Part shown: positions 7,890-32,467 of the stretch, piece by piece
Position numbering within the stretch: position 1 is the stretch's first letter
Layout: each line of letters starts with the position of its first letter
Assembly (NCBI GenBank): GCA_035565355.1
Contig: DATMSM010000044.1
Location: 7,373 to 71,372 of the forward strand
Direction of reading: 5' to 3'
DNA from: Rhodocyclaceae bacterium
GTDB taxonomy: Bacteria > Pseudomonadota > Gammaproteobacteria > Burkholderiales > Rhodocyclaceae
DNA length: 64,000 nt
Notes under the pieces: model-generated
What the model was told of the DNA's origin: nothing
The model's database searches: none
Seen by the model: the letters and a program-made list of their open reading frames with translations, nothing else
Translations under genes and position numbers: made by a program

Positions 7890-8834
7890 TCAGTCGAAAT
7901 TGATTCTTTCCTGCTCAACCACGATCGGGCGCTTTTGCAGGTAGGTATGGATGGAGCCGACGTACTCGCCAAGAATGCCTATGAAAACCATTAGTACGCC
8001 GAACATGAAGAACATCCCGATCATGAGCGGCGCAATGCCCATAGGGAAGCGCTCCCAGAACAAAATCTTCGCCACTAGAAAAACCAGCGCCGCGAACAGG
8101 CTGAGCCCGCCGATCGCGAACCCGGCAAACGCCGCAAGCCGGATGGGCACCTTCGAATGGCTAATAATGCCTAGCATAGCGATGTCATATAAAGTGTAGA
8201 AGTTATTCTTCGAGATGCCACGTAAACGACGCGGTTGCTCGAACGGCACAGTTTTGATCTCATATCCCAACTCGCAGATAAGGCCGCGTACGAAAGGGTA
8301 AGGGTCGTCAATGGCGCGCAAATGATCGAGCACCTCTCGGTCATACAAGCCAAAGCCGGTAGAGTCGGCAACTAGCCGAATATCGGCAATTCGATTGAGA
8401 GAGCGGTAGTAGCTCTTGCGTATTGCATGTACCCAGGCGAACCCCCCCTGGGCTACCGGCTTTGTCGCCATGACGAGCTTATAGCCCTCCTCCCAGTGTT
8501 TGATGAACTGGGGAATCATCTCGGGCGGGTCTTGCAAGTCCGAAGCGAGATAAACGGTCGCCATGCCACGTGATTGCAAAACGCCGTAGTAAGGTGACCG
8601 GATATGACCGAAGTTACGGACATTCACAATGACCTTGACCATCGGATCAATGGCCGCCAAGCGCCTCAGCTTTTCGACGGTTCCATCCTGCGAATGATTG
8701 TCGATGAAAATGAGTTCGAAATCGTAATCGCAGACATTGAGGATCGCTGCCTTAATGCGGGTATACAGCTCGCCGACATTGTCTTCTTCGTTGTAGCATG
8801 GAGTAACGATGCTCAAAAGTTTGCGTTCAGTCAT
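7890..8834 (-). CDS. Family 2 glycosyltransferase, polyprenyl-phosphate sugar transferase type (GtrB/ArnC/CsbB-like)
   Basis: LSIVTPCYNEEDN and DNHSQDGT motifs, plus two C-terminal TM helices (LAAFAGFAIGGLSLFAALVFLVA and LMIGMFFMFGVLMVFIGILGEY), as in GtrB/ArnC. Confidence 0.85.
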   Translation of the reverse strand: MTERKLLSIVTPCYNEEDNVGELYTRIKAAILNVCDYDFELIFIDNHSQDGTVEKLRRLAAIDPMVKVIVNVRNFGHIRSPYYGVLQSRGMATVYLASDLQDPPEMIPQFIKHWEEGYKLVMATKPVAQGGFAWVHAIRKSYYRSLNRIADIRLVADSTGFGLYDREVLDHLRAIDDPYPFVRGLICELGYEIKTVPFEQPRRLRGISKNNFYTLYDIAMLGIISHSKVPIRLAAFAGFAIGGLSLFAALVFLVAKILFWERFPMGIAPLMIGMFFMFGVLMVFIGILGEYVGSIHTYLQKRPIVVEQERINFD

Positions 8835-9289
8835 GTCCGATCAGCTCCTCCGCCTTTGAAGGTAAATCTCTTATGCGCAAAATACGATACGCCTACGGTA
8901 ATAAGTATCGTCAAAGCCTGGGCCAGCCATACGCTCTGGCGTAAACCGTCAACCAGCGCCGTAAACAAGGCGATGCTCACGATGGACATGCCACCATAGG
9001 CAACATAGCAGCGGAGATACTCGCGCAGCCAGTTTCCGTGAGTCCGAAAGACGAAAAGCTTGTATGTCAGGAACGACATCGAGATCGCAAGCACATTGGC
9101 AATCAATGCGACCTCCCACGTTGCCAACTGCGGTGAGAGCTTAGCGTAAAGGAAAACGACGATGCCATATGCGAACGCGGTGTTCCACGCACCTGCAATT
9201 AGGTAGCGAACCGGCTGCCGCTGACTTGTGATTCCCAAGAGAATCGCCCCAATTTGCCTTATCCCTGCACAAAGCTTAGCGCGCCGCAT
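8831..9289 (-). CDS. GtrA-family small membrane protein (lipid-linked sugar translocase-like)
   Basis: About 150 aa with 4 TM segments. YLIAGAWNTAFAYGIVVFLY and a C-terminal FAHKRFTFK motif are typical of GtrA. Stop overlaps the GT2 start. The start is uncertain (9289 or 9322). Confidence 0.7.
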   Translation of the reverse strand: MRRAKLCAGIRQIGAILLGITSQRQPVRYLIAGAWNTAFAYGIVVFLYAKLSPQLATWEVALIANVLAISMSFLTYKLFVFRTHGNWLREYLRCYVAYGGMSIVSIALFTALVDGLRQSVWLAQALTILITVGVSYFAHKRFTFKGGGADRT

Positions 9290-10250
9290 CGGATAGTCCG
9301 GCCATTGTCCGGATGGCGTCATCCAGCGTATAGGAAAGAGTTAATTCCAGCTCGGCACGGGCTTTCGCAATTGAGGGCACATACCGATTGCGAAAGCTCT
9401 GCGCGGCAGGGTCAGGCGTTGCGGCAATCCGAACATCTTTTCCCGGAGCGACCAAATCGCGGACGAGATATGCGAGTTCTCGGATAGAAATGGCAGCGTC
9501 AGACCCAACGTTGTATGCCTGGCCCGCCCGTCCCCTGGACAGCAAAGCGTACAACCAATGAGCGAGGTCTCTTTGATCCATATATGAACGTATGGGCATG
9601 CCATCCCCATTGACAAGAATCTCTGGCGCCCCCAAGGCATCACGGACGAAATTCCCAATAGCAAAATGCACATCTTGAGGAAGGTCAGGCCCTGCAAAAG
9701 CAAAGCAACGCGCAATGACCGGCTCTAAATCGTGCTGGCTCTGGTAGAGCGCGCATAGGTGCTCTGCGCAACGTTTGGCGACGCTGTAAGCATGCTGGGC
9801 ATCAAGTGGATCCGGCATGCCGTTGTAGCTTTCGGGAATCTGCTCCATTTCCGGCGGCTGTGGGCCATACGCCCCCCCGGAACTCGTAAGGAGGAAGCGT
9901 CGGATACCACGAGACACGGCGTAGTCCAGCATATGGCGCGTGCCGTCCGCAATCTGCGTATAACGCTGCAATGACGTCAGGTTCGGCCCTAGCGTGGAAT
10001 CGGTAGCAGCGTGCAGAAGATGGGTGTAGCCGCTATCGCGGGGCAGCGTTTGCGGATCAAGAATGTCCCCCCGGTGGAAGCGCAGCCATGCATGCCCGGC
10101 GAACTCGGGGTGGCGCTCCAGAAAGACTTGCGGGGAGCGACTCAGCACCGTGACCGAGGGCGTCGCCATTCCGTGCTCGGCCAGCCCGCACCAGTGGCGT
10201 AACAAGGCCTTGCCGAAAAACCCCGTCCCTCCCGTCAATAGCAGCTTCAT
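9276..10250 (-). CDS. NAD-dependent epimerase/dehydratase-family SDR (candidate sugar ketoreductase/epimerase)
   Basis: MKLLLTGGTGFFGKALL Rossmann motif at the N-terminus and the YSVAKRCAE catalytic YxxxK. Start taken at 10250. Confidence 0.85.
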   Translation of the reverse strand: MKLLLTGGTGFFGKALLRHWCGLAEHGMATPSVTVLSRSPQVFLERHPEFAGHAWLRFHRGDILDPQTLPRDSGYTHLLHAATDSTLGPNLTSLQRYTQIADGTRHMLDYAVSRGIRRFLLTSSGGAYGPQPPEMEQIPESYNGMPDPLDAQHAYSVAKRCAEHLCALYQSQHDLEPVIARCFAFAGPDLPQDVHFAIGNFVRDALGAPEILVNGDGMPIRSYMDQRDLAHWLYALLSRGRAGQAYNVGSDAAISIRELAYLVRDLVAPGKDVRIAATPDPAAQSFRNRYVPSIAKARAELELTLSYTLDDAIRTMAGLSDAAR

Positions 10251-10275
10251 AGTCAGTGACGTCTCCGCGCTCATG

Positions 10276-11400
10276 TCAGCGTGAACGGGGAACGGCGTAG
10301 AGCACGGACTCAAAAGAGTTGAAGTAATGCTGACGAATGTAGAACGCGTAGTCGGGGCAAAGCTCGAACAACAACTCGGGCAGGGCCCAAGGGTCCTGCG
10401 GGTTATGGTAGAGCGACATGGTCAGCACGGGGCGGCAGCGTTCGATGGTACGGCGCGCGCCGTCCAGCACCTGGGCCTCCGCCCCTTCCACATCCAACTT
10501 GATGAGATCGACCTGAATCTGCGGCAGCATCTGATCAAGCGCCACGGCAGCGATGTGGATATCGCCATGCACGCCGATCTGGCCGCCTTCGCCCTGCCCT
10601 GAACTAAAGGTCAGGATGGAATACTTGTCGGCCGCCGCCAAAGGCAGGCAGATTGCCTGCGGATGCCGCACACGGATATTGCCGGTCAGGGTATCGAAAT
10701 TACCGGGGTCGGGTTCGAGCAGGAAAGCCTGTGTGCAATGGATATCGGGCTGGCTTACCAAATCAGAAAAGGTATCGCCGGTATACGCGCCGCAATCCAC
10801 GTAAGTGATGGGCTTTTTGCTCAGCGAGTGTAAGGTGATCTCATTGAAATACTGCTTTTCCTCAGAGCAGAAGCTGGCAAATGGAAGATCCAGCCCAAGG
10901 CGGAAGGCGGCCATGCGCAACAGAATGTCGCGACTCTCCTGATCCGCTAGCCGCTCGGCCACACGTGCCATGCGCTCAAGCCCGGAAATAAGGAAGTCCC
11001 GTTTGCTTAACCAGAAGCGCCAGCCCAGTTCCTGCGAGTACGCATCATATGTATCCCAGGGCATGAGCATCTGCGAAAACCCGGCCTTGGCGGCGATTGA
11101 CACCAGCTCGTCAAAAGGCGTGGCCCGGTTGAGAATCCCGAGCGCTAACTGAGAGGCCTTGTCCTTATGCGCGAGCGTAGGCCAGTCGACCACCGGCAGA
11201 TCGGAAACGCTGCCAATCTTGGGGGCTGTCTCGACAAAACCCGCCACCTGGATGCCATTCCCCTGCATGGCCCGACACAGACTTCGGCCAAAGTTACCGG
11301 CGCCGAAAATCCAGATCGGACGTGCCGCATCAATCTGTGCTGCAGGCCTTGCCGCAGCTGCGGCCAACTGGGAGAAATTAGCGTAGGGAAGCATGTTCAT
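10276..11400 (-). CDS. FkbM-family SAM-dependent methyltransferase with an N-terminal Rossmann-like domain
   Basis: YVDCGAYTGDT and LIKLDVEGAE motifs are typical of FkbM. N-terminal IFGAGNFG. ATGA overlap with the upstream ThDP enzyme gene. Confidence 0.75.
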   Translation of the reverse strand: MNMLPYANFSQLAAAAARPAAQIDAARPIWIFGAGNFGRSLCRAMQGNGIQVAGFVETAPKIGSVSDLPVVDWPTLAHKDKASQLALGILNRATPFDELVSIAAKAGFSQMLMPWDTYDAYSQELGWRFWLSKRDFLISGLERMARVAERLADQESRDILLRMAAFRLGLDLPFASFCSEEKQYFNEITLHSLSKKPITYVDCGAYTGDTFSDLVSQPDIHCTQAFLLEPDPGNFDTLTGNIRVRHPQAICLPLAAADKYSILTFSSGQGEGGQIGVHGDIHIAAVALDQMLPQIQVDLIKLDVEGAEAQVLDGARRTIERCRPVLTMSLYHNPQDPWALPELLFELCPDYAFYIRQHYFNSFESVLYAVPRSR

Positions 11401-13223
11401 GCATGAGCCGGCGTGGCAGAGACGGCTCGGATGGCCGCCGCCTCCTCGCGGATACTGTCGAGCTCGGCTGTCTGCAGGAAGGGATGCATGTCATCAAGTT
11501 CCGGGGTGATGAACTTACCGTCTTCGCCGACGCGGGACTTGATGCGCGGCACGAACTCCTGACGGGGATCGACATGCAGATCGATCAGCAGTGGGCCATC
11601 CTGCGCGAGCAACTCATCGAACTGCGCAAAATCCGCTTCGGTAGCAATGGAAGCAGCCCTCAGCCCGTAGGCACTGGCAACTGCAGCATAGTCCGGGAAC
11701 TCCACACCGGAATCGGGGGTTGCTCCAATGACGCGGCCGAAAAAGTTTTCATGCGTCTGCCAGATGGACAGATAGCCGCTATTGTTGAGCACGATCACAA
11801 CGACGTTCAGGCCGCTTGTCTTCAGCGTCTGCAGTTCCTGAATATTCATCTGCAGGCTACCGTCGCCGGCAAAGCAAATGACTCTCCGCCCGCCGCTAGC
11901 CCGTGCAGCGACCGCTGCGCCAAGGGCCGCAGGCAAATCATAGCCCATCGAGGCCGAGCCAGAGTTGCTGAACAAGCGCTGGTCTTTTTGCAAAGTCCCG
12001 ACCTGGAAAGGCAGGATGCAGGCAGAAGCGTTACCGGAGACGACGATATCGTCGGACCGCATTTGCTTGAATATGCGCTCAACCATGAGGTATGGATTCA
12101 AAGGCGCATTCGGAATCTGGCGATGCTCGTTCGAGGCTTTGTATTTCACGCCTATCTTCTGGCACCACTGCGCCCACGGCCGATAATCGGGCAGCTTGAC
12201 GGATGCAAGTTCATTTTCGAGCACATCCAGGAAAGCGGATAGATCCGCCTCCACTGTGAAGTCGACCTTGATTGTGGGCTTGTTCAATTCCACAGGGTCG
12301 ATATCGACCTGTGCCACCCAGGCATTCTTGGCGAACGCATCCCAGTTGTAGCTGGTCTGGCGAATATTGAGTCGAGAACCGAGAACGAGAACAAAGTCGG
12401 CATTCTGCAGACAGAAGTTACCGGCACGTGTACCGATGGTACCCGGTCGCCCCGCAAAGAGCGGGTGATCGGAAGCAATCAGATCGTGGGTCCAGGCGGT
12501 GGTTAGCGGGATGCCGAGGCGCTCGATGAGCGACAGCAGGCGACCTTCCGTCTTAGACAGCCGCACCCCCGTGCCGCCCAAAATCAGGGGACGATGGCTG
12601 AGCTTTAGCTTTTCCAGAATGCTGCGGCAAGCTTGCGGCAAAGACTGTGATGCGCGAGGCTGGGGCGCTTGTGGTTTCGGAATGTCGATCTGGATGGTGG
12701 ACTGCTGAATATCCAGGGGAATGTCGAGCCACGCCGGCCCCGGACGCCCCGACGTAGCCTCGATGAATGCGCTGGGCAGAGCGGACACGAGGTCTTGCTC
12801 ATCGCGGACAAGATGCGCAAATTTACAGGCCGGGGCCGCCATCGCGATGGTCGGCCCTTCCTGATCGCCCAGCTGTCTCAGTTGAGGCAGATCGTAGAAA
12901 GACACACAGGTCTCACGCTTGATTTGCCCCGACAGAATGAGCATCGGGATGGAGTCGGTAAACGCCCCAAAAACACCGTTGAGCGCATTGATCGAGCCCG
13001 GCCCTGAGGTCAACATGACGACTGCGGGCTTACCCATAATCCGCGCATAGCCTTCGGCGGCCATCGCGCAAGCCTGCTCGTGGTGCATGAAGGTACATTG
13101 CAGCCGGGGATGCCCCCCCAACGCCTGGTTGAGAAACATGGCGCCGCCGCCGGTGACAGTAAACACCTGCTCGATGCCGCGCTCAACGAGCCAGTCGGCA
13201 ATTTGCTCCGAAATACGCTTCAT
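11397..13223 (-). CDS. Thiamine-diphosphate enzyme of the acetolactate-synthase family (YerE-like candidate)
   Basis: 608 aa. N-terminal ThDP pyrimidine-binding region (VFTVTGGGAMFLNQAL...HEQACAMAAEGYAR) and C-terminal GDGSLQMNIQELQT...NN ThDP/Mg motif. Confidence 0.85.
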   Translation of the reverse strand: MKRISEQIADWLVERGIEQVFTVTGGGAMFLNQALGGHPRLQCTFMHHEQACAMAAEGYARIMGKPAVVMLTSGPGSINALNGVFGAFTDSIPMLILSGQIKRETCVSFYDLPQLRQLGDQEGPTIAMAAPACKFAHLVRDEQDLVSALPSAFIEATSGRPGPAWLDIPLDIQQSTIQIDIPKPQAPQPRASQSLPQACRSILEKLKLSHRPLILGGTGVRLSKTEGRLLSLIERLGIPLTTAWTHDLIASDHPLFAGRPGTIGTRAGNFCLQNADFVLVLGSRLNIRQTSYNWDAFAKNAWVAQVDIDPVELNKPTIKVDFTVEADLSAFLDVLENELASVKLPDYRPWAQWCQKIGVKYKASNEHRQIPNAPLNPYLMVERIFKQMRSDDIVVSGNASACILPFQVGTLQKDQRLFSNSGSASMGYDLPAALGAAVAARASGGRRVICFAGDGSLQMNIQELQTLKTSGLNVVVIVLNNSGYLSIWQTHENFFGRVIGATPDSGVEFPDYAAVASAYGLRAASIATEADFAQFDELLAQDGPLLIDLHVDPRQEFVPRIKSRVGEDGKFITPELDDMHPFLQTAELDSIREEAAAIRAVSATPAHA

Positions 13224-14333
13224 TCAAAGTCCACGATTCAAAATAAGGCTCTTCAAAGCCACGTTTTCGCTGTACGGACCATCGATGTGATTGATCGTCA
13301 AACGCTCATCCGCCTTGATCGGCGCCTGCAGCTTTTCGCCGTTCATCACTTCCCGGCATGAGAGTTGCCCCTTATGCAGAGGCACCGCAAGGTAGAAGTC
13401 CTTCTCAAAATCATCCTTGTTGAAGACGTAGCCGACATCAAGGTCGCGACGCGCATACGCACCACGAACCAACGCGTCCAGATACTCCGTCTCCTTGCGC
13501 GTGATAACGCGCCGGCTATCGCTCACACCGCCGCACATTTCCTTGGCCTTATGAAAAGCCTTGAACCAGACGTCGCATTGTTCGGGAAGCGAACAATAAG
13601 AAGAAACCGCAACCCCTTCGTAGTTGATGTCGATATGACGCTCCCAGGTCCGTGCTCCCTTACCGTAGGAGATCAGCATGGAAGAGTGCCAATCGTGGTA
13701 TTCGTGAGTGGAAAGGCCGATTACATGATTCGGATAGCGCTTGCGCAGATAGTCGACCTGATCAAGACAGAGCTCGGAGTCCTCGCTGGGATAGAGGGAG
13801 ACGCAATGATTGATGGCCAGCGGAATATCCCGCTTCTCGAAAAAACGGACCATGTCGTCGAGATCCTTTTCCGAAGCGCCGCCTGTGGAAACAATCGTCG
13901 GCCGGCGAGTAGAGGCAATCTTTTCGATCAGCATCCAGTCATTCATGTCCGAACTCGCGATCTTGATGATCGGCATGTCGAACTCCACGCACAGGTCGAC
14001 AGAAGCCTCGTCAAACGGCGTAGACATGGGAATGCATCCGACATTCCTGACCTCTTCCACCATACGAAAAAACTCAGCCTTGGAAAGCTTAGTGTCTTCC
14101 GTTTTCTTTATATACCGCAGCTCGGTATTGCCCTTGAACTCAGGATGGACAAACTCGTCCACATCGCGGAACTGTAGCTTTATCGCGGCCTTCACATTGT
14201 TGTAGCGGACAATGGCACCATGGTCGCGAACAATCTTCAAGCCCCGTTCCAGCTTGCCCCAATGGTTATTGGCCAACTCAAGCACGAAAAGATTCTCGAA
14301 CAAATCTTTATCACGTTGACTGGTGGTGCGCAT
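13224..14333 (-). CDS. N-acetylneuraminate synthase (NeuB/SpsE) family protein with a C-terminal SAF-like domain
   Basis: The ELANNHWG motif corresponds to the NeuB (I/A)ExxxNHxG motif, followed by IKIASSDMND. Size 369 aa. No neuA or neuC partner is in the window. Confidence 0.65.
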   Translation of the reverse strand: MRTTSQRDKDLFENLFVLELANNHWGKLERGLKIVRDHGAIVRYNNVKAAIKLQFRDVDEFVHPEFKGNTELRYIKKTEDTKLSKAEFFRMVEEVRNVGCIPMSTPFDEASVDLCVEFDMPIIKIASSDMNDWMLIEKIASTRRPTIVSTGGASEKDLDDMVRFFEKRDIPLAINHCVSLYPSEDSELCLDQVDYLRKRYPNHVIGLSTHEYHDWHSSMLISYGKGARTWERHIDINYEGVAVSSYCSLPEQCDVWFKAFHKAKEMCGGVSDSRRVITRKETEYLDALVRGAYARRDLDVGYVFNKDDFEKDFYLAVPLHKGQLSCREVMNGEKLQAPIKADERLTINHIDGPYSENVALKSLILNRGL

Positions 14334-14467
14334 CCTTCCTCCAAGTATCTATTTAGTAGAAGCAACGCCAGAATCAGCTGGGGCTGGCGTTCGAAATTTA
14401 TCTGAATCAACAACGATGCGGCATCGATCCAGCCGGGTAGTCCAACCATGATCGATCTCGCACTTCG

Positions 14468-15808
14468 CTAGAAGCCCACCCCGAAGAAGGACTCCAGTTT
14501 TTCAACGGTAAAATCAAGCATTTCCCGGCTCAGTCCGGGAAAAACACCCAACCAGAAAGTCCGATTCATCACGACATCCGTATTGGTCAAGGTACCGCTC
14601 ACCCTGAAGTTCCTACCCATCATGTAAGGCTGTCTTGTCAAATTCCCCGCGAACAATAGACGAGTGCCTATCTTGTTCTGCTCAAGGAAATTGATGAGAT
14701 CGACACGATCAACACCAGCACCCTCCTTTAGCACCAACGGAAACCCGAACCAGGACGGCTCTGAGTTCGGCGTTGCCTCGGGCAGATGCAGGAATTCGGC
14801 ACAGCTTTGCAGGCGCTCCTTGAGATAGGCAAAATTGGCGCGGCGCTGAGCAATGAAATCCTTCACACGATCCATCTGCGCCAAAGCACATGCCGCCTGC
14901 ATGTCCGAGATCTTCAGGTTGTAGCCCAGATGACTATAGGTGTACTTGTGGTCATAGCCCTCAGGCAGATCCCCCAACTTCCAGCAAAACCGCTTGTTGC
15001 AAGTGTTGTCCTTGCCCGGCTGACAGTAGCAATCCCTTCCCCAGTCGCGGAAAGACTCGGCAATTGTCTTAAGTTCCGCGTTATTGGTGAATACCGCGCC
15101 ACCTTCACCCATGGTGATGTGGTGCGCAGGGTAAAAACTCAAGGTTGCAATATCACCGAACGTGCCGACCAATTCTCCGCCATAGGTCGCCCCAAGCGCA
15201 TCACAACAATCCTCGACCAACCACAGATTGTGCTTTTTGCACAACGCAGTAACCACGTCCAGGTTGAAGGGATTCCCCAGACTATGCGCCAGCATGATGG
15301 CTTTGGTCTTGGGCGAAATAGCCGCTTCGATCTTGCTGGCATCGATATTGTGAGTCGCCAAGTCAACGTCGACAAACACAGGCACTGCGCCGAATTGCAG
15401 AATGGGATTCACGGTCGTCGGGAAGCCCGCCGCGACGCCAATAACTTCGTCGCCGGGTTTGATGGCGCGCTCACCCAGCTTGGGGCTCGTCAAGGTGCTG
15501 AAGGCAACAAGATTTGCCGAAGAGCCGGAGTTGACCGTTATCACATACTTCACGCCCAGGAACTGCGCGAGACGTTCCTCAAACATCGCGTTAAAGCGCC
15601 CGGTCGTCAGCCAGCCATCCAATGATGCCTCGACCATGAGCTGTAGCTCTTTGGCGCCGATCACCTTGCCCGATACCGGTATCGGTGTTTGCCCAGGAGC
15701 AAAGGGCTTTGGCGCATAAGCGATATCAGCATATTGTTGAACCAGATCGGCGATCTGGACACGCAACTTTTCGAGTTGCGCTTGAGAAGAAACGTTGGCG
15801 CTCGTCAT
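14468..15808 (-). CDS. rfbH: CDP-6-deoxy-4-keto-hexose 3-dehydrase (E1, RfbH/DdhC type)
   Basis: DegT-fold protein in which the PLP lysine position reads [14 protein letters not shown] (His instead of Lys). A C-X57-C-X1-C-X7-C spacing (DCC...[13 protein letters not shown]) was counted in the translation. Start taken at MTSANV (15808). Confidence 0.88.
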
Positions 15809-17642: not shown

Positions 17643-17757
17643 GTTACTTCTCCTTTGACACTATCCAATGCCGACGAATCGGGTTCTAAACCCGCATGCC
17701 GTTTCTCGGAGAGTGATACCCTGACGGCCTCTCCGACCGCCTCCAGCACTCCACCCA

Positions 17758-19712: not shown

Positions 19713-19728
19713 TGGCATGCTCCTTGCT
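19713..19728 (+). promoter_or_regulatory. Sigma-54 (-24/-12) type promoter upstream of the short pilin gene
   Basis: TGGCAT-gctcc-TTGCT matches TGGCAC-N5-TTGCW with correct GG/GC spacing. It lies about 125 nt upstream of the pilin ATG. Confidence 0.55.
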
Positions 19729-19852: not shown

Positions 19853-20035
19853 ATGGCCAAAAAAACCCAGCGGGGTTTTACTCTGATTGAGCTGATGATC
19901 GTAGTTGCCATCATCGGCATCCTGGCTGCGATTGCCATCCCGCAATTCAGCGAATACACCAGGAAGGGCGAGAACAAGGCGGCTCAGTCCGACACTCGCA
20001 ACATCCTGACGCAAGCCATCGCCAACAGCCAATAA
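19853..20035 (+). CDS. Truncated type IVa prepilin (PilA-N-like, alpha-1 helix only)
   Basis: MAKKTQRG|[24 protein letters not shown] has the class III signal with Gly-1, Phe+1 and Glu+5. The mature part is only 52 aa. A GGAG Shine-Dalgarno lies 7 nt upstream of the ATG. Confidence 0.85.
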
Positions 20036-20052
20036 TTCCAGGAGACTCCAAT

Positions 20053-20400
20053 ATGAATCCGAATAGCAAAAAAGCGCTGGAAGCCATCCTCGTCGGCGGC
20101 GTACTGGTTGTATCCCTGAACGCGAGCGCTCAAACCGGCGCCTGCACCGGTGGTACCGGCGTGGGGATTCCGAGTGACCCAACCGCCTTCGTGAAGACCT
20201 CCTTCGTGCCGAAGTGCTCGGCCAATGTGAACGCCGTGTATCTGGACTCCGGCGCTGCCTTCAGTGTCGCGGGTTATTCCGCCAAGGGCAACCAAAGCTA
20301 TGGTGGTTCCAGCGAAGGTGGCAGCGTCAGCATGTGCACCACCTTTGGTGTCGGCGCCGCCCCGACCCTGAGCCCCAGCACGACTTCCGGCTGCTCCTGA
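20053..20400 (+). CDS. Secreted Gly/Ser/Thr-rich 4-Cys protein (candidate PilA-C-like pilin partner)
   Basis: AGGAG Shine-Dalgarno. Sec-type signal peptide (ILVGGVLVVSLNASA|QT). Four Cys in the mature part. Starts 17 nt after the pilin stop. Confidence 0.6.
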   Translation: MNPNSKKALEAILVGGVLVVSLNASAQTGACTGGTGVGIPSDPTAFVKTSFVPKCSANVNAVYLDSGAAFSVAGYSAKGNQSYGGSSEGGSVSMCTTFGVGAAPTLSPSTTSGCS

Positions 20401-20412
20401 TCCAGCCTTTGG

Positions 20413-20442
20413 AAAAAGCCGGCTTTGCGCCGGCTTTTTTTT
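20413..20442 (+). terminator. Rho-independent terminator/attenuator after the two pilin-related genes
   Basis: Stem AGCCGGC / GCCGGCT followed by a T8 run. The next ORF starts only 6 nt later. Confidence 0.7.
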
Positions 20443-20447
20443 CGCCC

Positions 20448-21266
20448 ATGTCTCTGACTCCTTACACTCAACATATTTCCATCGCATGGAAGCTCGGCGT
20501 CCGCAGCCATGCCATACGCGCGCTGGTCGCATTCGGCGTGTTTCTTCTTGGCGCTGCGTTTCTCGCTGGAGCATTCTCTTTGCGCCAGCCGCTTATCGTC
20601 ACCCTGGATGTCGGCATCAGCGGCATTCGCCTACTGACGGTCTTGCTAACCCTGTTCTGGATGCAGGAAGCCTTCGTACACGACATCGAGCGCCGCACCC
20701 TGACCCTGGCCTTCAGTTTGCCGCTTGATCGCATCACCTACGTACTGGGGCGCTTTATCGGCATCATGCTTTTGATTTCGCTTGCCGTCACCACTTGGGG
20801 AGCTGCCCTTGCAATTGCCGACCAGTTTGCCAGTTGGGGCTACCCCGGGTCCTCGCGCCCGGCTTTGGGGTTGCGCTACGTCGCCATGCTAATGGGCATC
20901 ATGCTTGATGCCTGGGTTATCGGCGCATTCGTCCTCGCCGTCGCCAGTGTCGCACAAACGCCGCTATTGCCTTTTCTGACCGGTGCCGCGTTCGCGGTCT
21001 CCGCCCGCAGCATAGGCGCCGTACTCGATTACCTGAGTTATTCATCCTCCGTGGATGCTGCAACGAAGGCCTATTTCCTAAGCCTCATCGACAAGCTACG
21101 CTGGATCCTACCCGACCTCGGACTATTGGACTGGCGCGCCGCCACCCTATATGGTCAAGACTTTCCGTGGCCACAGGCGCAGTCAGGGATGGCAATTGCC
21201 TTCGGCTACCTTATTGTTTTCCTATCCATTGCCGTCTTTGCGTATCGCCGGCGAGAATTTTACTGA
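20448..21266 (+). CDS. Polytopic membrane protein, ABC-2-type permease-like
   Basis: 272 aa with about 6 hydrophobic segments. No clear Shine-Dalgarno. TGATG overlap with the following gene. An ABC ATPase is encoded 4 kb downstream in the same operon. Confidence 0.55.
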   Translation: MSLTPYTQHISIAWKLGVRSHAIRALVAFGVFLLGAAFLAGAFSLRQPLIVTLDVGISGIRLLTVLLTLFWMQEAFVHDIERRTLTLAFSLPLDRITYVLGRFIGIMLLISLAVTTWGAALAIADQFASWGYPGSSRPALGLRYVAMLMGIMLDAWVIGAFVLAVASVAQTPLLPFLTGAAFAVSARSIGAVLDYLSYSSSVDAATKAYFLSLIDKLRWILPDLGLLDWRAATLYGQDFPWPQAQSGMAIAFGYLIVFLSIAVFAYRRREFY

Positions 21267-24200
21267 TGTCCGCTCAAGCGCCAGACTCCATGCTCCCGCT
21301 CCTGCAGGCGATCCAGTCCTGCGTCAATCAGGGACAAGCTGCTGAAGCCATCCGTCTGTGGGAGGAAGCCGGGCGCCCCGAAAACCGGGAAACCCTTTTT
21401 CTTACGGCGATTGCCGTGCAGCAACTGGACGACCTCGCTTTGGCCCGAGCCAAGCTGGAGAAGGCCCTCGCGCTCGACCCGGACTACCCTCCGGCACAAC
21501 TGCGTCTTGCCCAGGTTGCGCTGAGCGCATTGGACTACCCCGCGACCATCGCCTGGGCAGACCGCTACCTGAATTACCGGCCGTACAGCCAGGAGGCCAT
21601 CAGCTGGAAGGTCTTCGCCATGCAGAAAAACGGCCAGGCGGAAGCTGCGGAGCAGGCCCTGATGGAGTACATCAGGGTTTTTCCCTATTCTCTGGCCACA
21701 GCACAATGCAGCATCGTGATCGCCAATGAACGCAAGGCCTATGTCTATGCCCTACTCATGGGAGGACGGTTACCGCTAGAGCACTGGCACAGGAGTTACG
21801 CTGGACAAACGCTGGCGGCTTGTTGCTTCCATCTCTCCCATGCGCCGCTGATGCATGCAGTTGTCGATATTGTTTACGCCGATACGGTAGCGGAAGAGGA
21901 CGCTGAATATGCTGCACTGATCGGTAATCTGGCGACGCTCGGCGACGCCTATGAAGATGCGGTGCAATGGTACACGCGTGCACGCCAACTCGACCCGCAC
22001 GCCGAGACAAGCTGGTTCAACGAGGCCATCAGTCGCTGGGCGACCGGGGACTTTGCCGCAGGAAGCATCGCCTACCGCGAACGCGGCAAGCTGATGAAGC
22101 TCATGCGTCTGGATGGAATACCGGAATGGCGCGGTGAGAATCTGGAAGGCAAGACACTGCTTGTGCATAGCGAACAAGGCAGCGGAGACGTCATCCAGTT
22201 CATCCGCTATATGCCGTATCTGCGCGAAATCGCAGGCACCGTGCTGTTCAATACCTACCCTGACATTCTTGCACTGCTGCGGACAGACGAAAAAAGTACG
22301 GCGGCCCAGGGCCTGAACGAAAGTCTCCTCGACAAAATCGACTATCAGATCTGGATGATGGACGTGCCAGGCTATCTGAGGCCGAACGGCCTTGCCGACT
22401 TCCCGGCGGATACACCCTATCTGTTCCCGCCTCAAGAAAGGGTTGCCTCATGGAAGAATCGCCTGGCCCCCTACCAAGGTCTAAAGGTCGGTCTGGTTTG
22501 GGCCGGCAACCCCGAACACGCAAATGATCCCAATCGCTCAGCCAGCCTAGCCGAATGGTCGGCATTGAGTGAACTGCAAGGCGTACACTGGTTTTCCTTG
22601 CAAAAAGGCCACGGAGAGCCAGAAGCGAGTTACCCACCGCCAGGGCTGACGCTGAACAATCTCAGCCCGGAAATTCGCGACTTTTCCGATACCGCAGCCA
22701 TCCTCGCAAATCTGGACTTGCTGATCAGCGTAGACACATCGGTGGCCCATTTGGCCGGTGCGTGCGGACGTCCTTGCTGGACCTTATTGCCGAAGCAATG
22801 CATCGACTGGCGCTGGGCCAACCAGCCCGAGATTCCGCACTACTATCCCAGCATGCGTCTGATTCGCCGACAAAAGGAGGACATCGGCTGGGATAGCCTG
22901 GTACGGCGCGAGGTCATCCCCAGGCTCATTGAGCTCGGTGCCACCACGCGTCCAACCCCATCGGAAACATCTCTATCGGCTTATGCGCAGACGCTGGCGC
23001 AGGCGCGCACTACGTTGCAGAACGGGAAGCTGAGCGAAGCGTTAACCCTGTCAGTTCAAGGACTCACGGAGTACCCAGGCGACCCTCGCCTGCAGATGGT
23101 TTGCGCCGACGCGCACATTCGCATGGGCAACAAGGTGTCTGCCGGAGAATGCGCTGCCGAAGTGCTACGCATCTTCCCGCGCAGTGTCAACGCGCATCGC
23201 ATCGCTATGCAGTCGGCCAAAAAGGACAACCTCTTGGGAATGAGTACTCATCTCCAGGCGATGTTGCGTATAGAGCCGGACAACCATGCCATCTGGCAAG
23301 ACGCTGCACGCTTCTACATGACCCACCATGCGCCGCTGATCGCCTATCTCGTCATGCGACACCTGGTGTCACTTAACCCCTCGCACTCGCATATCACTAC
23401 GCTGGCCATTTCTCTGTTGCGCTTGGGCAATCGAGATGCAGCGGCCTCCTTACTTGCAGACATCGAACCTGCGTCTGGAGACAGCCTTGAGCTCCTCCAA
23501 GAGCTCTACTACGCCTGCGCAACCCTTAATCAACGGGACAAGGCGGACCTATTGCAGTCCGCCATCACAGCCCGAGGGCCGATAGGCTCGGACCTCGGCC
23601 TGATGATAGGCTCCATGCTTCTGAGGTGGGGAGAGCAAGAGGGCTGGAAGTTCTATAACCTCTGCAATTGGCCCGACCCCGTCGAGACGCCGCTCAACGT
23701 CCCGATCTGGAACGGCGAAGCATTGGATGGCAAGCATCTGTTGATTTATCAGGATCAAGGCTATGGAGACGTCATTCAGTTCTTCCCCCTGATAAACAGA
23801 TTACCGTCGGCAAGAAAAATTACGCTCTCGGTGTTCTCCGAGGTGCGTGATCTGCTGAGCGAACAAAGTCTCCCGCGGGGGCTTGAGATCATTACCCACA
23901 AAAAGCTGTCGGAAGACTCGGCGCACTATGACTACAGAATCGGTTTCATGCATTGGGTTGCAGGCCTTGCGCCGGATTTGACCAGGCTGCCCGCCCCCTA
24001 TCCCTACCTGCGTGTATCGAGCTCTCCTCGCCTGGAGACATGGGAACAAAAGATGATGGTCGATGCTGGCTTTAAAGTCGGTATCGCATGGGCAGGAAAC
24101 CCCGCGCACTTCAACGACTACAACCGTTCCACGCAACTGGGTGATTGGTTGCCGCTCACTCAGATTTCTGGCATCTCACTGTATAACCTGCAGCGCGACC

Positions 24201-24550
24201 ACGCATCAGATCAGGTTTTTGAATATCCGCAGTTCGAATTTCAAAATATCGTGGCGGATTGCAAGACTCTCCGCGACACCGCCGCCGCGATGCGTATGCT
24301 TGATCTAGTTGTCATCGTAGACACTGGACCGGCCCACCTCGCCGCATCGCTCGGTGTCGAAACCTGGATTCTTCTTCCTAACCTCGGCAACGACTTCCGC
24401 TGGATGCAGGAACGCGATGATTGTCCGTGGTACCCGAGCGTTCGGCTGTTCCGACAGGATATCAACGAGCCCTGGTCTTCCGTGCTGCAGCGTGTTGCTA
24501 CGGCACTTCATGAACGGATGGCGCATCCGGCGAACGTGGTCGCATGCTGA
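21266..24550 (+). CDS. Tandem TPR - GT9-like glycosyltransferase (two TPR+GT modules in one 1094-aa protein)
   Basis: Two internally repeated modules, each with a helical TPR-like region. Module 1 has GSGDVIQFIRY...VGLVWAGNPEHANDPNRS...DTSVAHLAGACGRPCWTLLP...YYPSMRLIRRQ. Module 2 has GYGDVIQFFPL...VGIAWAGNPAHFNDYNRS...DTGPAHLAASLGVETWILLP...PWYPSVRLFRQ. Confidence 0.8.
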   Translation: MSAQAPDSMLPLLQAIQSCVNQGQAAEAIRLWEEAGRPENRETLFLTAIAVQQLDDLALARAKLEKALALDPDYPPAQLRLAQVALSALDYPATIAWADRYLNYRPYSQEAISWKVFAMQKNGQAEAAEQALMEYIRVFPYSLATAQCSIVIANERKAYVYALLMGGRLPLEHWHRSYAGQTLAACCFHLSHAPLMHAVVDIVYADTVAEEDAEYAALIGNLATLGDAYEDAVQWYTRARQLDPHAETSWFNEAISRWATGDFAAGSIAYRERGKLMKLMRLDGIPEWRGENLEGKTLLVHSEQGSGDVIQFIRYMPYLREIAGTVLFNTYPDILALLRTDEKSTAAQGLNESLLDKIDYQIWMMDVPGYLRPNGLADFPADTPYLFPPQERVASWKNRLAPYQGLKVGLVWAGNPEHANDPNRSASLAEWSALSELQGVHWFSLQKGHGEPEASYPPPGLTLNNLSPEIRDFSDTAAILANLDLLISVDTSVAHLAGACGRPCWTLLPKQCIDWRWANQPEIPHYYPSMRLIRRQKEDIGWDSLVRREVIPRLIELGATTRPTPSETSLSAYAQTLAQARTTLQNGKLSEALTLSVQGLTEYPGDPRLQMVCADAHIRMGNKVSAGECAAEVLRIFPRSVNAHRIAMQSAKKDNLLGMSTHLQAMLRIEPDNHAIWQDAARFYMTHHAPLIAYLVMRHLVSLNPSHSHITTLAISLLRLGNRDAAASLLADIEPASGDSLELLQELYYACATLNQRDKADLLQSAITARGPIGSDLGLMIGSMLLRWGEQEGWKFYNLCNWPDPVETPLNVPIWNGEALDGKHLLIYQDQGYGDVIQFFPLINRLPSARKITLSVFSEVRDLLSEQSLPRGLEIITHKKLSEDSAHYDYRIGFMHWVAGLAPDLTRLPAPYPYLRVSSSPRLETWEQKMMVDAGFKVGIAWAGNPAHFNDYNRSTQLGDWLPLTQISGISLYNLQRDHASDQVFEYPQFEFQNIVADCKTLRDTAAAMRMLDLVVIVDTGPAHLAASLGVETWILLPNLGNDFRWMQERDDCPWYPSVRLFRQDINEPWSSVLQRVATALHERMAHPANVVAC

Positions 24551-25356
24551 AAATATGGCCCTCTGTCATGCTGGCTGCCGGAATCGGGCTGACGGCACTG
24601 GGAAATCATCTGCGTCCACCACCACGGCCGATGCAGGAAAGCCTCTCGGTCATGATCCCCGTCCCAGTTCAAATTGTGGCGGCATTTGGCGATCGCTATC
24701 TGGCGGCCAACATAGGCACTTGGCGTGCAATCATGGTTGGCACGCATCGGATGTCCAAAGACGAACTGACAGCGCTTTCCCAAGTACAAGACAGTGCATC
24801 TTGGCTCAATCCAGGCCATGAAGACAACTATTACACTGCTGCCGCCATCCTGCCATGGGCTGGCGAACTTGAGGCGACGCAACGTATTCTCAAGCGCGCC
24901 ACCCAAGCGCGCCCCCACGATCTGTACCCTTCGTTTTTTCATGGCTTCAACGCACTCTACTTTCTAGGCGATGGACTCACTGCAAGCCAGTCATTGAGGA
25001 CAGCAGCGGCCCATGCTCAGTCAAACGATGAACGCCAGGCATTGTCCGTATTGGCGGCACGCTGGTCCGAGCGAAACAACGCCCCACAGATTGCCATTGG
25101 TATCGTTTCGCATATGGCAAAGGAAAGCAAAGACCCGGCGCTCAAGGCATATTTGGCACAAAGAGTCGTCAGACTGGAAGGGCTGGTACAGCTACGTGCT
25201 GCGGCAACCCGCTATCAAGAGCGTTATGGCCGCCCACTGGAAAACCTCGAGCAGTTGGTCAGTGCCGGCATACTTGCCGCCGTGCCTGTTGATCCGCTTG
25301 GCGATGGATACGGATTGCAGGACAATCAACCCGTACTGTTGTCACCGAAAAACTGA
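24544..25356 (+). CDS. Hypothetical protein with an N-terminal membrane anchor or signal
   Basis: 270 aa. N-terminal hydrophobic segment VMLAAGIGLTAL followed by a helical repeat-like body. Translationally coupled (ATGCTGA overlap) to the TPR-GT gene. Confidence 0.5.
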   Translation: MLKIWPSVMLAAGIGLTALGNHLRPPPRPMQESLSVMIPVPVQIVAAFGDRYLAANIGTWRAIMVGTHRMSKDELTALSQVQDSASWLNPGHEDNYYTAAAILPWAGELEATQRILKRATQARPHDLYPSFFHGFNALYFLGDGLTASQSLRTAAAHAQSNDERQALSVLAARWSERNNAPQIAIGIVSHMAKESKDPALKAYLAQRVVRLEGLVQLRAAATRYQERYGRPLENLEQLVSAGILAAVPVDPLGDGYGLQDNQPVLLSPKN

Positions 25357-25361
25357 ACTAT

Positions 25362-26288
25362 ATGCCGGATATTATTTCTGCCAGCAACGTCAGCAAACAC
25401 TATCGCAAGGGTTTGCGCCGACACATCTTCAATGCCCTCGAAGATGTGAGCTTTAGCGCTGCCGCCGGCGAGTCAATCGGTTTCATCGGCCACAATGGTG
25501 CGGGCAAGAGCACCATGATCAGGATCATCATGGGCTTGCAGACACCGACGAGCGGTTCTGTGCTGTTGCAGGGCATGGACCCGCGGGTGCCGGAAAGCCG
25601 CCGCGGTGTTGCCTACGTTCCGGAGAACCCGCTGCTCTACGACCACCTCAGCCCCAATGAGCTCATCCGACTGACGACACTCAGCCACGGAATCTCACCG
25701 AATGAGACCGCAGCGCGTACGCGGAAGTGGTTAGAAAGACTCAACCTTGCCGAAGTCGCGGACAAGCGCGTACGGCAATTTTCCAAGGGGATGGTGCAGC
25801 GTACGACACTCGCCATGGCTTTAGCGGTGGAGCCGCGCTTTCTGATTCTCGATGAACCGCTTTCCGGGCTGGACCCGACCGGGCGGCGCGAGGTCGTGGA
25901 GATTCTTTCTGAATACCGAAGAAACGGTGGCGGAATGCTGTTCTCGTCTCACGTGCTGACCGACGTGGAAGTGCTCGCCGATCGTTTCCTCTTTATTCAC
26001 AAAGGTCGCATTCGCGTCACGGGAACCCCGGGCACCCTACTGCAAGGCCACGAAGACAGTTACGAAGTCATCATCGAAGCGACGGACGAACCGCCCCCGG
26101 GATTTTCACAGCTATATGGGCTCCAGTACAAACTGGAGCTCGACGCAAATGCGCTTGAGATGAAGTTGTCGGAATTGAGAAACAAGAACGGAGTGCGCCT
26201 GATCAACATTCGTTCCAGAAATACGCTCGAATCGGCCTATTTCAGATTTGTCGCGGAAGCCGAACGATCCGACGCCCGACCATCGTAA
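25362..26288 (+). CDS. ABC transporter ATP-binding protein (ABC-2 exporter type)
   Basis: Walker A GHNGAGKST, signature FSKGMVQR, Walker B LILDEPLSGLD. Confidence 0.9.
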   Translation: MPDIISASNVSKHYRKGLRRHIFNALEDVSFSAAAGESIGFIGHNGAGKSTMIRIIMGLQTPTSGSVLLQGMDPRVPESRRGVAYVPENPLLYDHLSPNELIRLTTLSHGISPNETAARTRKWLERLNLAEVADKRVRQFSKGMVQRTTLAMALAVEPRFLILDEPLSGLDPTGRREVVEILSEYRRNGGGMLFSSHVLTDVEVLADRFLFIHKGRIRVTGTPGTLLQGHEDSYEVIIEATDEPPPGFSQLYGLQYKLELDANALEMKLSELRNKNGVRLINIRSRNTLESAYFRFVAEAERSDARPS

Positions 26289-26305
26289 TTAGGAAGAGAT
26301 TCAAC

Positions 26306-27115
26306 ATGGATGGCTACAATGCTCGCCTGGAAGTCGATATTCCCTATTTACAGCCGCATAGCGCATGCAAGGTCTGTGGAGAACAAGCCAGCCTGTATGG
26401 CGTAGTCGACTTTACTAAGACCTGCGCGCAAGAACTCAAACTAGCGCCAGTCGGCGTCCCGGTCTACTACTATCAATGCAGCCACTGCCAGTTTTTATTT
26501 ACGCGGGCATTCGACAAGTGGACGGTCGGCGACTTCAATCGCCACATCTATAACAAAAACTACCAGGTATTCGACCCTGATTCCCTGGAAATACGTCCGA
26601 GCAGTTTCTACGTTTTTTTTCAAGAAGTCCTAAGCAAACACCGGGGCCGCATTCGCGGATTGGACTATGGGGGGGGCAACGGTCTATTGTCGCGTTTAAT
26701 GGTCGATAAGGGCTACGACTTCAGCACTTGGGATCCAATGGAGGCGGAACAGACCATTCCCGAAGGTAAATTCAACCTCATCAGCGCCATTGAAGTAGCT
26801 GAGCACGTTCCCGATCCCCATACGTTCTTTACCGCCATAGACCGTTACTTATCCCAAGATGGGCTCTGCTTTTTCACTACCGCAGTCCAGGATAGCGCCG
26901 ATATCGAAGACCTGATGGCTTGGTGGTACGTAGCTCCCATCAATGGCCATATCAGCTTGTACTCGCATAAAGCCATTGAGCATTTATGTGCCCAATATGG
27001 TCTGCGAGGCCATATCAGTGGCGGTCGACACTTTCTCTACCGAGAGCCTACACCGCTTCTTGATGAGTTTATAAACACCATACTCTCCCATGAGGAGGCA
27101 AGTCACAGCAGCTAA
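26306..27115 (+). CDS. Class I SAM-dependent methyltransferase with an N-terminal CxxC...CxxC zinc ribbon
   Basis: CKVCGEQ...CSHCQ, followed by LDYGGGNG (motif I). Confidence 0.7.
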   Translation: MDGYNARLEVDIPYLQPHSACKVCGEQASLYGVVDFTKTCAQELKLAPVGVPVYYYQCSHCQFLFTRAFDKWTVGDFNRHIYNKNYQVFDPDSLEIRPSSFYVFFQEVLSKHRGRIRGLDYGGGNGLLSRLMVDKGYDFSTWDPMEAEQTIPEGKFNLISAIEVAEHVPDPHTFFTAIDRYLSQDGLCFFTTAVQDSADIEDLMAWWYVAPINGHISLYSHKAIEHLCAQYGLRGHISGGRHFLYREPTPLLDEFINTILSHEEASHSS

Positions 27116-29660: not shown

Positions 29661-29679
29661 ACTGCGACTATCCTCCGCA

Positions 29680-32389: not shown

Positions 32390-32467
<78 letters not shown>

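Follow-up and report, generated by a model that had tools for sequence, protein, structure and literature searches.

What does an operon for rare-sugar synthesis do beside a split type IV pilin and an ATP-binding cassette (ABC) transporter in a betaproteobacterium? The question is raised by a 64-kb stretch of DNA from a Rhodocyclaceae metagenome-assembled genome (MAG), hereafter the window, in which an island at 7890-27115 holds 17 reading frames in two divergent blocks. An earlier note on this DNA had proposed that all of these genes act together as one integrated system, which decorates and exports a pilin-like filament or a secreted protein and which had not been described before. The present analysis instead identifies a type IVa major-pilin locus of the Geobacter/Myxococcus type (19.7-26.3 kb), surrounded by a strain-specific glycosylation island that would decorate the pilus, a reading to which we assign a probability of roughly 0.6. 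The identity of the locus rests on homology and synteny, and that of the glycosylation island on protein families, a predicted fold and a recurrent gene neighbourhood. Protein families were searched in Pfam and NCBIfam with their curated cut-offs, structures were predicted with AlphaFold2 (AF2) and compared with the PDB using Foldseek, and related loci were searched by tblastn.

The pilin-transporter cassette that anchors this reading comprises the following features.

19713..19728, plus strand: sigma-54-type promoter-like site TGGCATgctccTTGCT, 125 nt before the pilin ATG.
19853..20035, plus strand: short, helix-only type IVa prepilin of the PilA-N type (N_methyl E 3.7e-11, TIGR02532 E 4e-11).
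20053..20400, plus strand: 115-aa secreted Gly/Ser/Thr-rich protein with Ser as its last residue, in the PilA-C position (by gene position and signal peptide).
20416..20442, plus strand: terminator-like hairpin, GCCGGC-loop-GCCGGC followed by T8, between the 115-aa and permease genes.
20448..21266, plus strand: PilI-like ABC-2 permease with approximately six transmembrane (TM) helices (ABC2_membrane_2 21.5 bits, below the cut-off of 27.2).
24544..25356, plus strand: PilG-like 270-aa protein (P270) with a hydrophobic N-terminus, a helical extracytoplasmic part and no Pfam domain.
25362..26288, plus strand: PilH-like ABC ATPase (ABC_tran E 3e-31) without a Wzt_C domain.

The closest counterpart is found in Geobacter. 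The G. hydrogenophilus locus, fetched via its PilA-N homologue, encodes pilB, pilT, pilC, pilS and pilR, a 69-aa pilin and a 115-aa protein, followed by a 267-aa ABC2_membrane_2 protein, a 282-aa domainless protein and a 294-aa ABC_tran protein. The pilin, permease, P270 and ATPase of the window match it collinearly (E 7e-12, 1.7e-13, 1e-22 and 9e-46, respectively), the permease being homologous to the 267-aa protein, P270 33% identical to the 282-aa protein in the PilG position and the ATPase 37% identical to that in the PilH position. The corresponding genes of G. sulfurreducens KN400 carry the annotations PilA, PilI, PilG and PilH (Sharma et al. 2018 supplement, PMC6060248), while myxobacterial PilI is an ABC2_membrane_2 protein and myxobacterial PilG is domainless (PMC6060248 supplement). 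The collinear homology and the KN400 annotation identify the split pilin and the ABC pair as a known, poorly understood pilus locus.

Gene order and sizes (a short pilin, a secreted protein of ~115 aa, a permease of 267-272 aa, a domainless protein of 270-282 aa and an ABC ATPase) are those of the Geobacter pilA-N/pilA-C/pilI-pilG-pilH locus (GSU1496-GSU1501; filament 6VK9; xapD). Four of the five proteins show significant and collinear similarity, the sigma-54-type promoter logic is common to both loci, and in Geobacter a polytopic GT-C-like gene and sugar genes likewise directly follow pilH. The window differs in its betaproteobacterial host, in that pilBTCSR are not adjacent, in a double tetratricopeptide repeat (TPR)-glycosyltransferase family 9 (GT9) protein encoded between pilI and pilG, and in a 115-aa protein without significant similarity to G. 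sulfurreducens PilA-C. Its decoration module is also distinct, consisting of cytidine diphosphate (CDP)-dideoxyhexose, YerE-like and NeuB-like enzymes, a GtrA protein, a family 2 glycosyltransferase (GT2) and a GT-C protein for which there is no Pfam model. PilGHI, catalogued as TCDB 3.A.1.144.5, similarly consists in Myxococcus xanthus of an ABC ATPase, an ABC2_membrane_2 permease and a domainless extracytoplasmic protein encoded beside pilA, and is required there for pilus assembly and S motility; in that organism the order is G-H-I, after a full-length pilin, and we know of no glycosyltransferase insert in it. The view that the combination was undescribed therefore does not hold for its core, since the Geobacter locus is established and knowledge of PilGHI in Myxococcus dates from 1998; the novelty is confined to the decoration module.

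The cassette is widespread. A scan of one genome per species located P270 relatives in 175 species genomes, mostly of Rhodocyclales and Chitinimonas, and the best 80 of these 175 loci, from Accumulibacter, Sulfuritalea, Propionivibrio, Dechloromonas, Rugosibacter, Chitinimonas and their kin, were fetched and examined. Same-strand cassette genes were found by tblastn for the pilin in 74 of the 80 (61-88% identity), for the permease and P270 in all 80 and for the ATPase in 79, while a 115-aa-like protein was detectable in 44. P270 has 464 homologues, every one of them unnamed, and its profile matched nothing meaningful in the PDB. The permease and P270 genes are directly adjacent, with no glycosyltransferase gene between them, in 68 of 79 loci, and the ABC pair, earlier taken for a dedicated exporter of the decorated product, is a conserved component of the pilus locus and not demonstrably an exporter of that kind.

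The class III leader of the pilin, MAKKTQRG/FTLIELM (the slash marks the cleavage point), retains the G/FTLIE cleavage and methylation site and Glu5, its best PDB matches are the Geobacter 'geopilin domain 1' structures 7tgg, 9egp and 2m7g/6vk9 (E 1e-16 to 9e-15), and G. hydrogenophilus PilA-N shares 72% identity with it. The start is most likely at 19853, giving a 60-aa precursor with the leader MAKKTQRG/F and 52 mature residues, in preference to a 114-aa open reading frame (ORF) from 19691, which is unlikely to be the prepilin product. The 115-aa gene starts 17 nt past the pilin stop in the same orientation and its product carries a signal peptide, but matches no family and no PDB entry. Members of its family lie directly 3' of the short pilin gene in at least 60 loci and have a KCSANV...SxKG...GG motif and Cys pairs in common. 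The last residue is Ser or Thr in 48 of 60 members, against a background Ser+Thr frequency of 0.30 in the preceding 20 residues (binomial p ~1e-15). The top match of the family profile at G. hydrogenophilus is the syntenic 115-aa ORF, a weak one (E 0.006 at a notional Z = 1000), and pilA-C has been described as highly divergent (PMC6201914). In the same study Geobacter PilA was reported to carry glycerophosphate on Tyr32 (PMC6201914).

The site TGGCATgctccTTGCT is one of four matches to the sigma-54 motif with one mismatch in the 64 kb, and of 74 related loci, 12 have the strict sigma-54 motif ahead of their pilin gene, where ~0.33 would be expected. The hairpin at 20416-20442 has a fold energy of -20.1 kcal/mol (z = -2.8). 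Together, the sigma-54-like site and the hairpin divide the plus strand into at least three units (the GT-C gene; the pilin and 115-aa genes; pilI, TPR-GT9, pilG, pilH and a methyltransferase gene), and the single plus-strand operon, and with it the picture of two divergent operons, is rejected as too simple. The second of these units agrees with the bicistronic pilA-N/pilA-C operon of Geobacter (PMC5174107, PMC6201914). As for the divergent promoter region that the two strands were thought to share, the gap at 17643-17757 exists, but a sigma-70 consensus scan of it returned no promoter match. The gene content and translational coupling given in the earlier note were borne out: all 17 frames are intact, with 0 internal stops, and their functions by Pfam and NCBIfam are as named there. 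The genes are tightly packed, with ATGA overlaps at rfbF/rfbG, rfbG/rfbH, ThDP/FkbM and GtrA/GT2, TGATG at the permease/TPR-GT9 junction and a 7-nt overlap of the TPR-GT9 and 270-aa genes. Several starts were revised: those of rfbH, rfbG and the short-chain dehydrogenase/reductase (SDR) gene were moved to internal ATGs, that of the permease was corrected to 20448 (272 aa) and that of TPR-GT9 to 21266, the resulting 1094-aa product being 100% identical to a Rhodocyclaceae MAG protein in GenBank.

What, then, are the genes built around this cassette? From the minus-strand operon to the end of the island they are as follows.

7890..8834, minus strand: GT2 polyprenyl-phosphate glycosyltransferase, GtrB/ArnC/PgfS-like (Pfam Glycos_transf_2 E 1.5e-25, above cut-off).
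8831..9322, minus strand: GtrA-family small membrane protein, putative flippase for a lipid-linked sugar (GtrA_DPMS_TM 56.9 bits, cut-off 26.1).
9276..10274, minus strand: SDR epimerase/dehydratase/reductase (Pfam Epimerase E 2.2e-33).
10276..11400, minus strand: FkbM-family methyltransferase (Methyltransf_21 and TIGR01444, both above cut-off).
11397..13223, minus strand: YerE-like thiamine diphosphate (ThDP)-dependent carboligase with three TPP domains, predicted to form a branched-chain sugar.
13224..14333, minus strand: NeuB-family phosphoenolpyruvate-condensing enzyme, ulosonic acid synthase-like (Pfam NeuB E 3.7e-35).
14468..15808, minus strand: RfbH, E1-type CDP-6-deoxy-4-keto-hexose 3-dehydrase (PRK15407 755.6 bits, cut-off 423).
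15805..16875, minus strand: RfbG, CDP-glucose 4,6-dehydratase (TIGR02622 515.7 bits, cut-off 278).
16872..17642, minus strand: RfbF, glucose-1-phosphate cytidylyltransferase with a TTG start (TIGR02623 467.3 bits, cut-off 300).
17643-17757: divergent intergenic region of 115 bp between rfbF and the GT-C gene (coordinates from the gene models).
17758..19596, plus strand: 612-aa predicted GT-C-fold glycosyltransferase, a GtrC-type partner of GtrA and GT2 by predicted fold and neighbourhood.
21266..24550, plus strand: 1094-aa cytoplasmic protein with two tandem TPR + GT9-like modules (TPR families, two Glyco_transf_9 stretches), an accessory insert.
26306..27115, plus strand: S-adenosylmethionine-dependent methyltransferase with an N-terminal Cys4 motif (Methyltransf_23 E 4e-27), accessory.

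The G+C content of the island is 53-59%, against 62-64% in the housekeeping flanks (measured at 7890-28000), which is consistent with horizontal acquisition or a hypervariable locus.

The 612-aa protein matched nothing in Pfam, NCBIfam or the sequences of the PDB, and an exact-sequence look-up returned no record. Its family comprises 1223 cluster representatives that align over the full length at E < 1e-3; a Pfam scan of 33 members found no family, and a Wzy_C domain was matched neither in the protein nor in these 33 relatives. Single-sequence AF2 prediction gave an unusable model (predicted local distance difference test score, pLDDT, 42), and a model built from the 33-sequence alignment was used instead (pLDDT 93.4, predicted template modelling score 0.93). 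Every confident Foldseek match of this model in the PDB is a GT-C enzyme (probability at least 0.95, most 1.0), including yeast and human STT3, AglB, DPY19, AftD, PglB, EmbA/B, Pmt4, ArnT, PimE and ALG3, with TM-scores of ~0.35-0.45 and E values of ~1e-3. The predicted GT-C fold and the GtrA and GT2 neighbours point to the GT-C member of a GtrA/GtrB/GT-C triad, all three members of which are encoded together in the window, as in the GtrABC systems.

The two closest homologues of this protein both abut the pilin-ABC cassette. At the locus designated L085, the homologue (48% identical) is preceded by an FkbM gene and is convergent on genes for a 118-aa protein, the permease, TPR-GT9, P270 and the ATPase. 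At L086, the homologue (44% identical) belongs to a co-directional operon of ThDP, SDR, radical-SAM, GT2, NeuB, GtrA and GT-C genes, convergent on those for the ATPase, P270, TPR-GT9 and permease, and its neighbours resemble those of the window (ThDP 61%, NeuB 66%, GT2 57% and GtrA 35% identity). The co-occurrence that had been put forward as a check on the earlier proposal is thus found on independent and differently arranged contigs, where ThDP, NeuB, GT2, GtrA and GT-C orthologues adjoin the cassette. Judging from its modelled structure, the 612-aa protein is a lipid-linked-sugar (GT-C) transferase with closest relatives that are associated with pilus loci.

The sugar that it would transfer is suggested by the minus-strand operon. 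RfbF, RfbG, a YerE-like ThDP enzyme, RfbH and an SDR recall the yersiniose pathway (DdhABCD-YerE-YerF), from which the window differs in having no gene for an E3 reductase (DdhD/RfbI) and in encoding an additional NeuB-family enzyme and an FkbM methyltransferase. The best solved relative of the ThDP enzyme is JanthE (8rph; E 9e-90, 305 bits), ahead of the best acetolactate synthase (239 bits, E 6e-70). JanthE is a YerE-like aldehyde-ketone carboligase (PMC12188165), and the greater sequence similarity to it than to acetolactate synthases points to a yersiniose-like, 4-C-branched sugar. The SDR, for which no NCBIfam model reaches its cut-off, is possibly a YerF-like reductase. The NeuB-family enzyme scores under the PseI and NeuB equivalog cut-offs and has 3g8r as its best PDB match (E 6e-58); we speculate that it supplies a 2-keto-acid donor to the ThDP enzyme, and the two genes travel together in 8-11 loci. 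The best NCBIfam matches of the GT2, PgfS and ArnC, both fall under cut-off, and its C-terminus forms hydrophobic helices with transmembrane segments at ~229-288. Orthologues of the GT2 (54-60% identity) adjoin the cassette in 13-18 of the 80 loci and those of the NeuB-family enzyme (58-66% identity) in 10-11, in addition to L086, and depending on the gene the GT2, NeuB and ThDP genes lie convergent and downstream of the cassette in 8-18 of the 80. Within the otherwise overlapping operon, a non-coding gap of 134 nt (14334-14467) separates rfbH from the NeuB gene, and may be the seam at which an acquired rfbFGH block adjoins the NeuB-ThDP-GT2 block found repeatedly in other loci.

Aside from these genes, the cassette is interrupted and extended in different ways in different genomes. 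The TPR-GT9 gene is a 3.3-3.7-kb insert between the permease and P270 genes in nine of the 80 loci, and likewise in L085 and L086; in the window it overlaps both pilI and pilG, a position that links it with the pilus locus. Citrifermentans bemidjiense encodes a homologue (31% identity) in a flagellar cluster, beside flagellin genes, and the flagellin glycosyltransferase FlmG likewise combines TPR and glycosyltransferase domains (PMC7591256), making a protein-directed role plausible. Against the PDB the protein gave matches to TPR repeats only and to no GT9 structure, a result compatible with closeness either to the lipopolysaccharide (LPS) heptosyltransferases or to TibC-type protein heptosyltransferases. 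In some loci (L026:4710-9160, L054, L057 and L031), two tandem genes for TPR proteins with a family 41 glycosyltransferase (GT41) domain, O-GlcNAc-transferase-like, lie between the 115-aa and permease genes, a different glycosyltransferase family at a different junction of the same cassette. The terminal methyltransferase gene is shared by L004 alone among the 80 loci.

The position directly after pilH is equally variable. In 37 of 70 loci, a gene for a protein of at least 400 aa with at least seven TM helices lies no more than 1.5 kb beyond that for the ATPase, and these proteins fall into at least five families, three without a Pfam model, one with Wzy_C (the O-antigen ligase or O-oligosaccharyltransferase type) and one of the sulfatase type. 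The Wzy_C protein (PglL/TfpO-type) occurs in L080:11686-13167 and the sulfatase-family proteins (PptA/LtaS-type) in L075:2918-4894 and L051:15524-17434, which suggests alternative pilus modifications, with a glycan transferred en bloc or with phospho-forms. In Geobacter the slot is occupied by a 9-TM protein with TPRs and a VDD motif, and in Geopsychrobacter by a TPR_2 + PMT_2 protein whose gene adjoins 14 kb of inserted sugar genes, a Glyco_transf_9 gene among them. The varying inserts and post-pilH genes characterise the cassette as a conserved scaffold with a hypervariable surface-modification island. The TPR-GT9, rfbFGH and terminal methyltransferase genes are accessory rather than core.

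These observations can be assembled into a mechanism. A sigma-54-type promoter would drive expression of the short PilA-N-like pilin and its 115-aa secreted partner, with PilI, PilG and PilH following, and the low-G+C, strain-specific island would have been built around and into this conserved cassette. RfbF, RfbG and RfbH would first form a CDP-4-keto-3,6-dideoxyhexose, given an E3 reductase. The YerE-like carboligase would then add a carbon branch, as in yersiniose synthesis, with the donor perhaps provided by the NeuB-family enzyme, after which the SDR would reduce and the FkbM enzyme methylate the product. The sugar would next be linked to undecaprenyl phosphate (Und-P) by the GtrB-like GT2 and flipped across the membrane by GtrA, for transfer in the periplasm by the 612-aa GT-C protein. 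The TPR-GT9 protein may act as a second, cytoplasmic and optional glycosyltransferase.

The pilus is favoured as the acceptor because the adjacency of the sugar and pilin genes survives rearrangement, because several periplasm-facing enzymes share the same slot and because of the Ser/Thr ends of the 115-aa family. The most likely site is the Ser/Thr-rich tail of the 115-aa subunit, with its C-terminal Ser. A C-terminal Ser is the acceptor in the group I pilin of Pseudomonas aeruginosa, which the ends of the 115-aa proteins recall. The arrangement as a whole resembles the islands of P. aeruginosa (TfpO/PilO, and TfpW with lipid-linked arabinose) and Neisseria (PglL, PptA/PptB), where variable genes for polytopic, periplasm-facing transferases lie beside that for the major pilin. 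It differs from them in that the transferase is not of the Wzy_C type and not demonstrably TfpW-like, the putative donor is a single Und-P-linked, CDP-derived sugar and the acceptor would be a separate PilA-C-like subunit.

Several points weigh against this interpretation. The gene neighbourhood supports the link between sugar and pilin genes drawn in the earlier note, but the identity of the acceptor is arrived at by inference rather than from direct evidence. Neither the 115-aa protein nor a profile of 45 sequences of its family matched G. sulfurreducens PilA-C (6VK9) when compared with the PDB. The names PilI, PilG and PilH are applied to the trio of the window through the annotated positions of its Geobacter homologues, so that on sequence grounds the link with M. 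xanthus is an indirect one. The rfbFGH genes were found in none of the other cassette loci among the 80 scanned. No E3 reductase (RfbI/AscD/DdhD) is encoded in the island, all nine minus-strand genes belonging to other families, and we know of no GtrB-type enzyme that uses CDP-sugars. Among the more distant homologues of the GT-C protein, those in L088 and L089 (34-38% identical) are preceded by GtrA and GT2 genes, or by GtrA alone, with no pilin gene in view, and L090:1858-7357 carries three tandem paralogues (615, 609 and 603 aa) on a contig without a GtrA, GT2 or pilin gene, so that the GT-C family as a whole is not pilin-specific. Two of the post-pilH families, poly517 and poly649, were tried as remote GT-C relatives and are not called GT-C, with profile-profile probabilities below 1%.

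Could the sugar operon and GT-C gene instead be an ordinary Gtr-type module for O-antigen, LPS core or exopolysaccharide, lying next to the pilin genes merely because this is a hypervariable, frequently exchanged site? GtrA/GtrB/GT-C systems and rfbFGH are classically O-antigen genes, and the low G+C content of the island, the distant GT-C homologues that accompany GtrA and GT2 away from any pilin and the restriction of rfbFGH to the window alone among the 80 loci are what such a module would lead one to expect. The donor of Gtr systems is, in addition, normally uridine diphosphate-glucose and their classical acceptor the O-antigen, whereas the neighbourhood in the window points to the pilus. 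The module lies divergent and upstream of the cassette here but convergent and downstream in L085, L086 and 13-21 other loci, genes for periplasm-facing polytopic enzymes directly follow pilH in over half of the loci, and glycosyltransferase genes are inserted within the cassette itself, in translational coupling with its genes. On balance a module serving other surface glycans is unlikely, though it deserves to be taken seriously.

A further proposal takes the permease, P270, ATPase and TPR-GT9 as an exporter of a polysaccharide or glycolipid, in line with the 'Xap' view of the Geobacter locus, with TPR-GT9 building a lipid-carried glycan and the pilins as mere neighbours. The gene xapD (GSU1501), encoding an ABC ATPase five genes after pilA-N that has been described as an exporter of exopolysaccharide (EPS), is cited as necessary for EPS and for cytochrome anchoring (PMC5585712, PMC4974642, PMC11934962), and gene counting in the KN400 table indicates that the Geobacter PilH (cf. 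L084:12302-13186) is probably GSU1501/xapD. Glycan exporters do occur among the ABC-2 transporters, and some genomes have glycosyltransferase genes embedded in the operon. The adjacency of permease and P270 genes in the great majority of loci, with no glycosyltransferase gene between them, speaks against such an exporter, as does the nature of the transporter. The permease matches only PF12679 and PF13346, being of the ABC2_membrane_2 type and not Wzm, and since neither the ABC2_membrane model (PF01061) nor Wzt_C was matched, the ABC pair was rejected as a Wzm/Wzt O-antigen exporter; Geobacter encodes a separate Wzm/Wzt pair downstream of the cassette. Deletion of pilGHI in Myxococcus abolishes S motility as well as EPS, and EPS is likewise missing when pilA or the other pil gene clusters are deleted (PMC5544727). 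By analogy with these pil mutants, the phenotypes reported for Xap could follow indirectly from a pilus defect, and an export function unconnected with the pilus appears distinctly improbable. That the TPR-GT9 protein glycosylates flagellin and nothing pilus-related, as the flagellar setting of its Citrifermentans homologue, the FlmG-like architecture and a 557-aa flagellin gene in the window (61383-63056, plus strand; its product has Flagellin_N, a long middle section and Flagellin_C, and might serve a TPR-glycosyltransferase as an alternative substrate) might suggest, is the least probable explanation of all, since the gene lies between pilI and pilG, and overlaps both here, in the window, in L085 and L086 and in loci of nine species, while the flagellin gene is 34 kb distant.

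Beyond the reading of a pilus locus with a strain-specific glycosylation island, one may ask whether PilI, PilG and PilH and the variable enzymes around them are jointly a single machine for pilus decoration. Cytoplasmic TPR-glycosyltransferases (GT9 here, GT41 elsewhere) and the GT2 would load glycans on a lipid carrier, PilI/G/H and/or GtrA would bring these to the periplasmic face, and the PilA-C-like subunit of a two-protein pilus would receive them on its C-terminal Ser/Thr tail from interchangeable polytopic transferases, here the GT-C protein. For this strain the proposal implies a new sugar, CDP-derived, 3,6-dideoxy and branched, which the YerE-like enzyme would form with a keto-acid donor produced by the NeuB-family enzyme. 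This joint proposal is a long shot. Were it true, PilGHI would gain a function after 25 years, and the Geobacter 'Xap' phenotype would be a defect in pilus glycosylation or in pilus assembly.

Other genes in the vicinity of the cassette may be mentioned. Approximately 1-8 kb before the pilin gene, 20-38 of the 80 loci (L004-L083; for example L020:1-8200) encode a CHASE2 adenylate/guanylate cyclase, a metallo-beta-lactamase (MBL)-fold protein, a protein with cyclic nucleotide-binding and rhodanese domains, a 792-aa GAF-T2SSE ATPase and a GAF-HD-GYP protein, a block which suggests cyclic-nucleotide control of a dedicated assembly ATPase. The window has no CHASE2/GAF-T2SSE/GAF-HD-GYP block upstream of the pilin; MBL and HDOD genes are present downstream of the cassette in inverted orientation (window 28779-30543). 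A 791-aa minus-strand ORF at 33207-35582, which had been guessed to be the GAF-T2SSE ATPase of the other loci, is PheT. An assembly ATPase of 616 aa with MshEN and T2SSE domains is encoded at 58260-60110 on the minus strand, with no other pil genes seen nearby, and is 36% identical to the GAF-T2SSE ATPase encoded upstream of the cassette in other Rhodocyclales. A tRNA-Pro (32390-32466) and a tRNA-Val (40183-40259) are located further downstream of the island.

These findings do not overturn current knowledge. If the reading of a decorated type IVa pilus is right, the cassette with its ABC transporter is not a speciality of the Desulfuromonadales, relatives of P270 being encoded in at least 175 species genomes. 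Among its carriers are Accumulibacter, Dechloromonas, Propionivibrio and Sulfuritalea, organisms of importance in wastewater and groundwater, and its distribution bears on the debate over the purpose of these pili. The combination of RfbFGH, a YerE-like carboligase and a NeuB-like enzyme may be a pathway to a branched deoxy sugar not described before. The locus as a whole would then be a hotspot for interchangeable surface-modification enzymes, and would offer a testable handle on the function of PilGHI/Xap.

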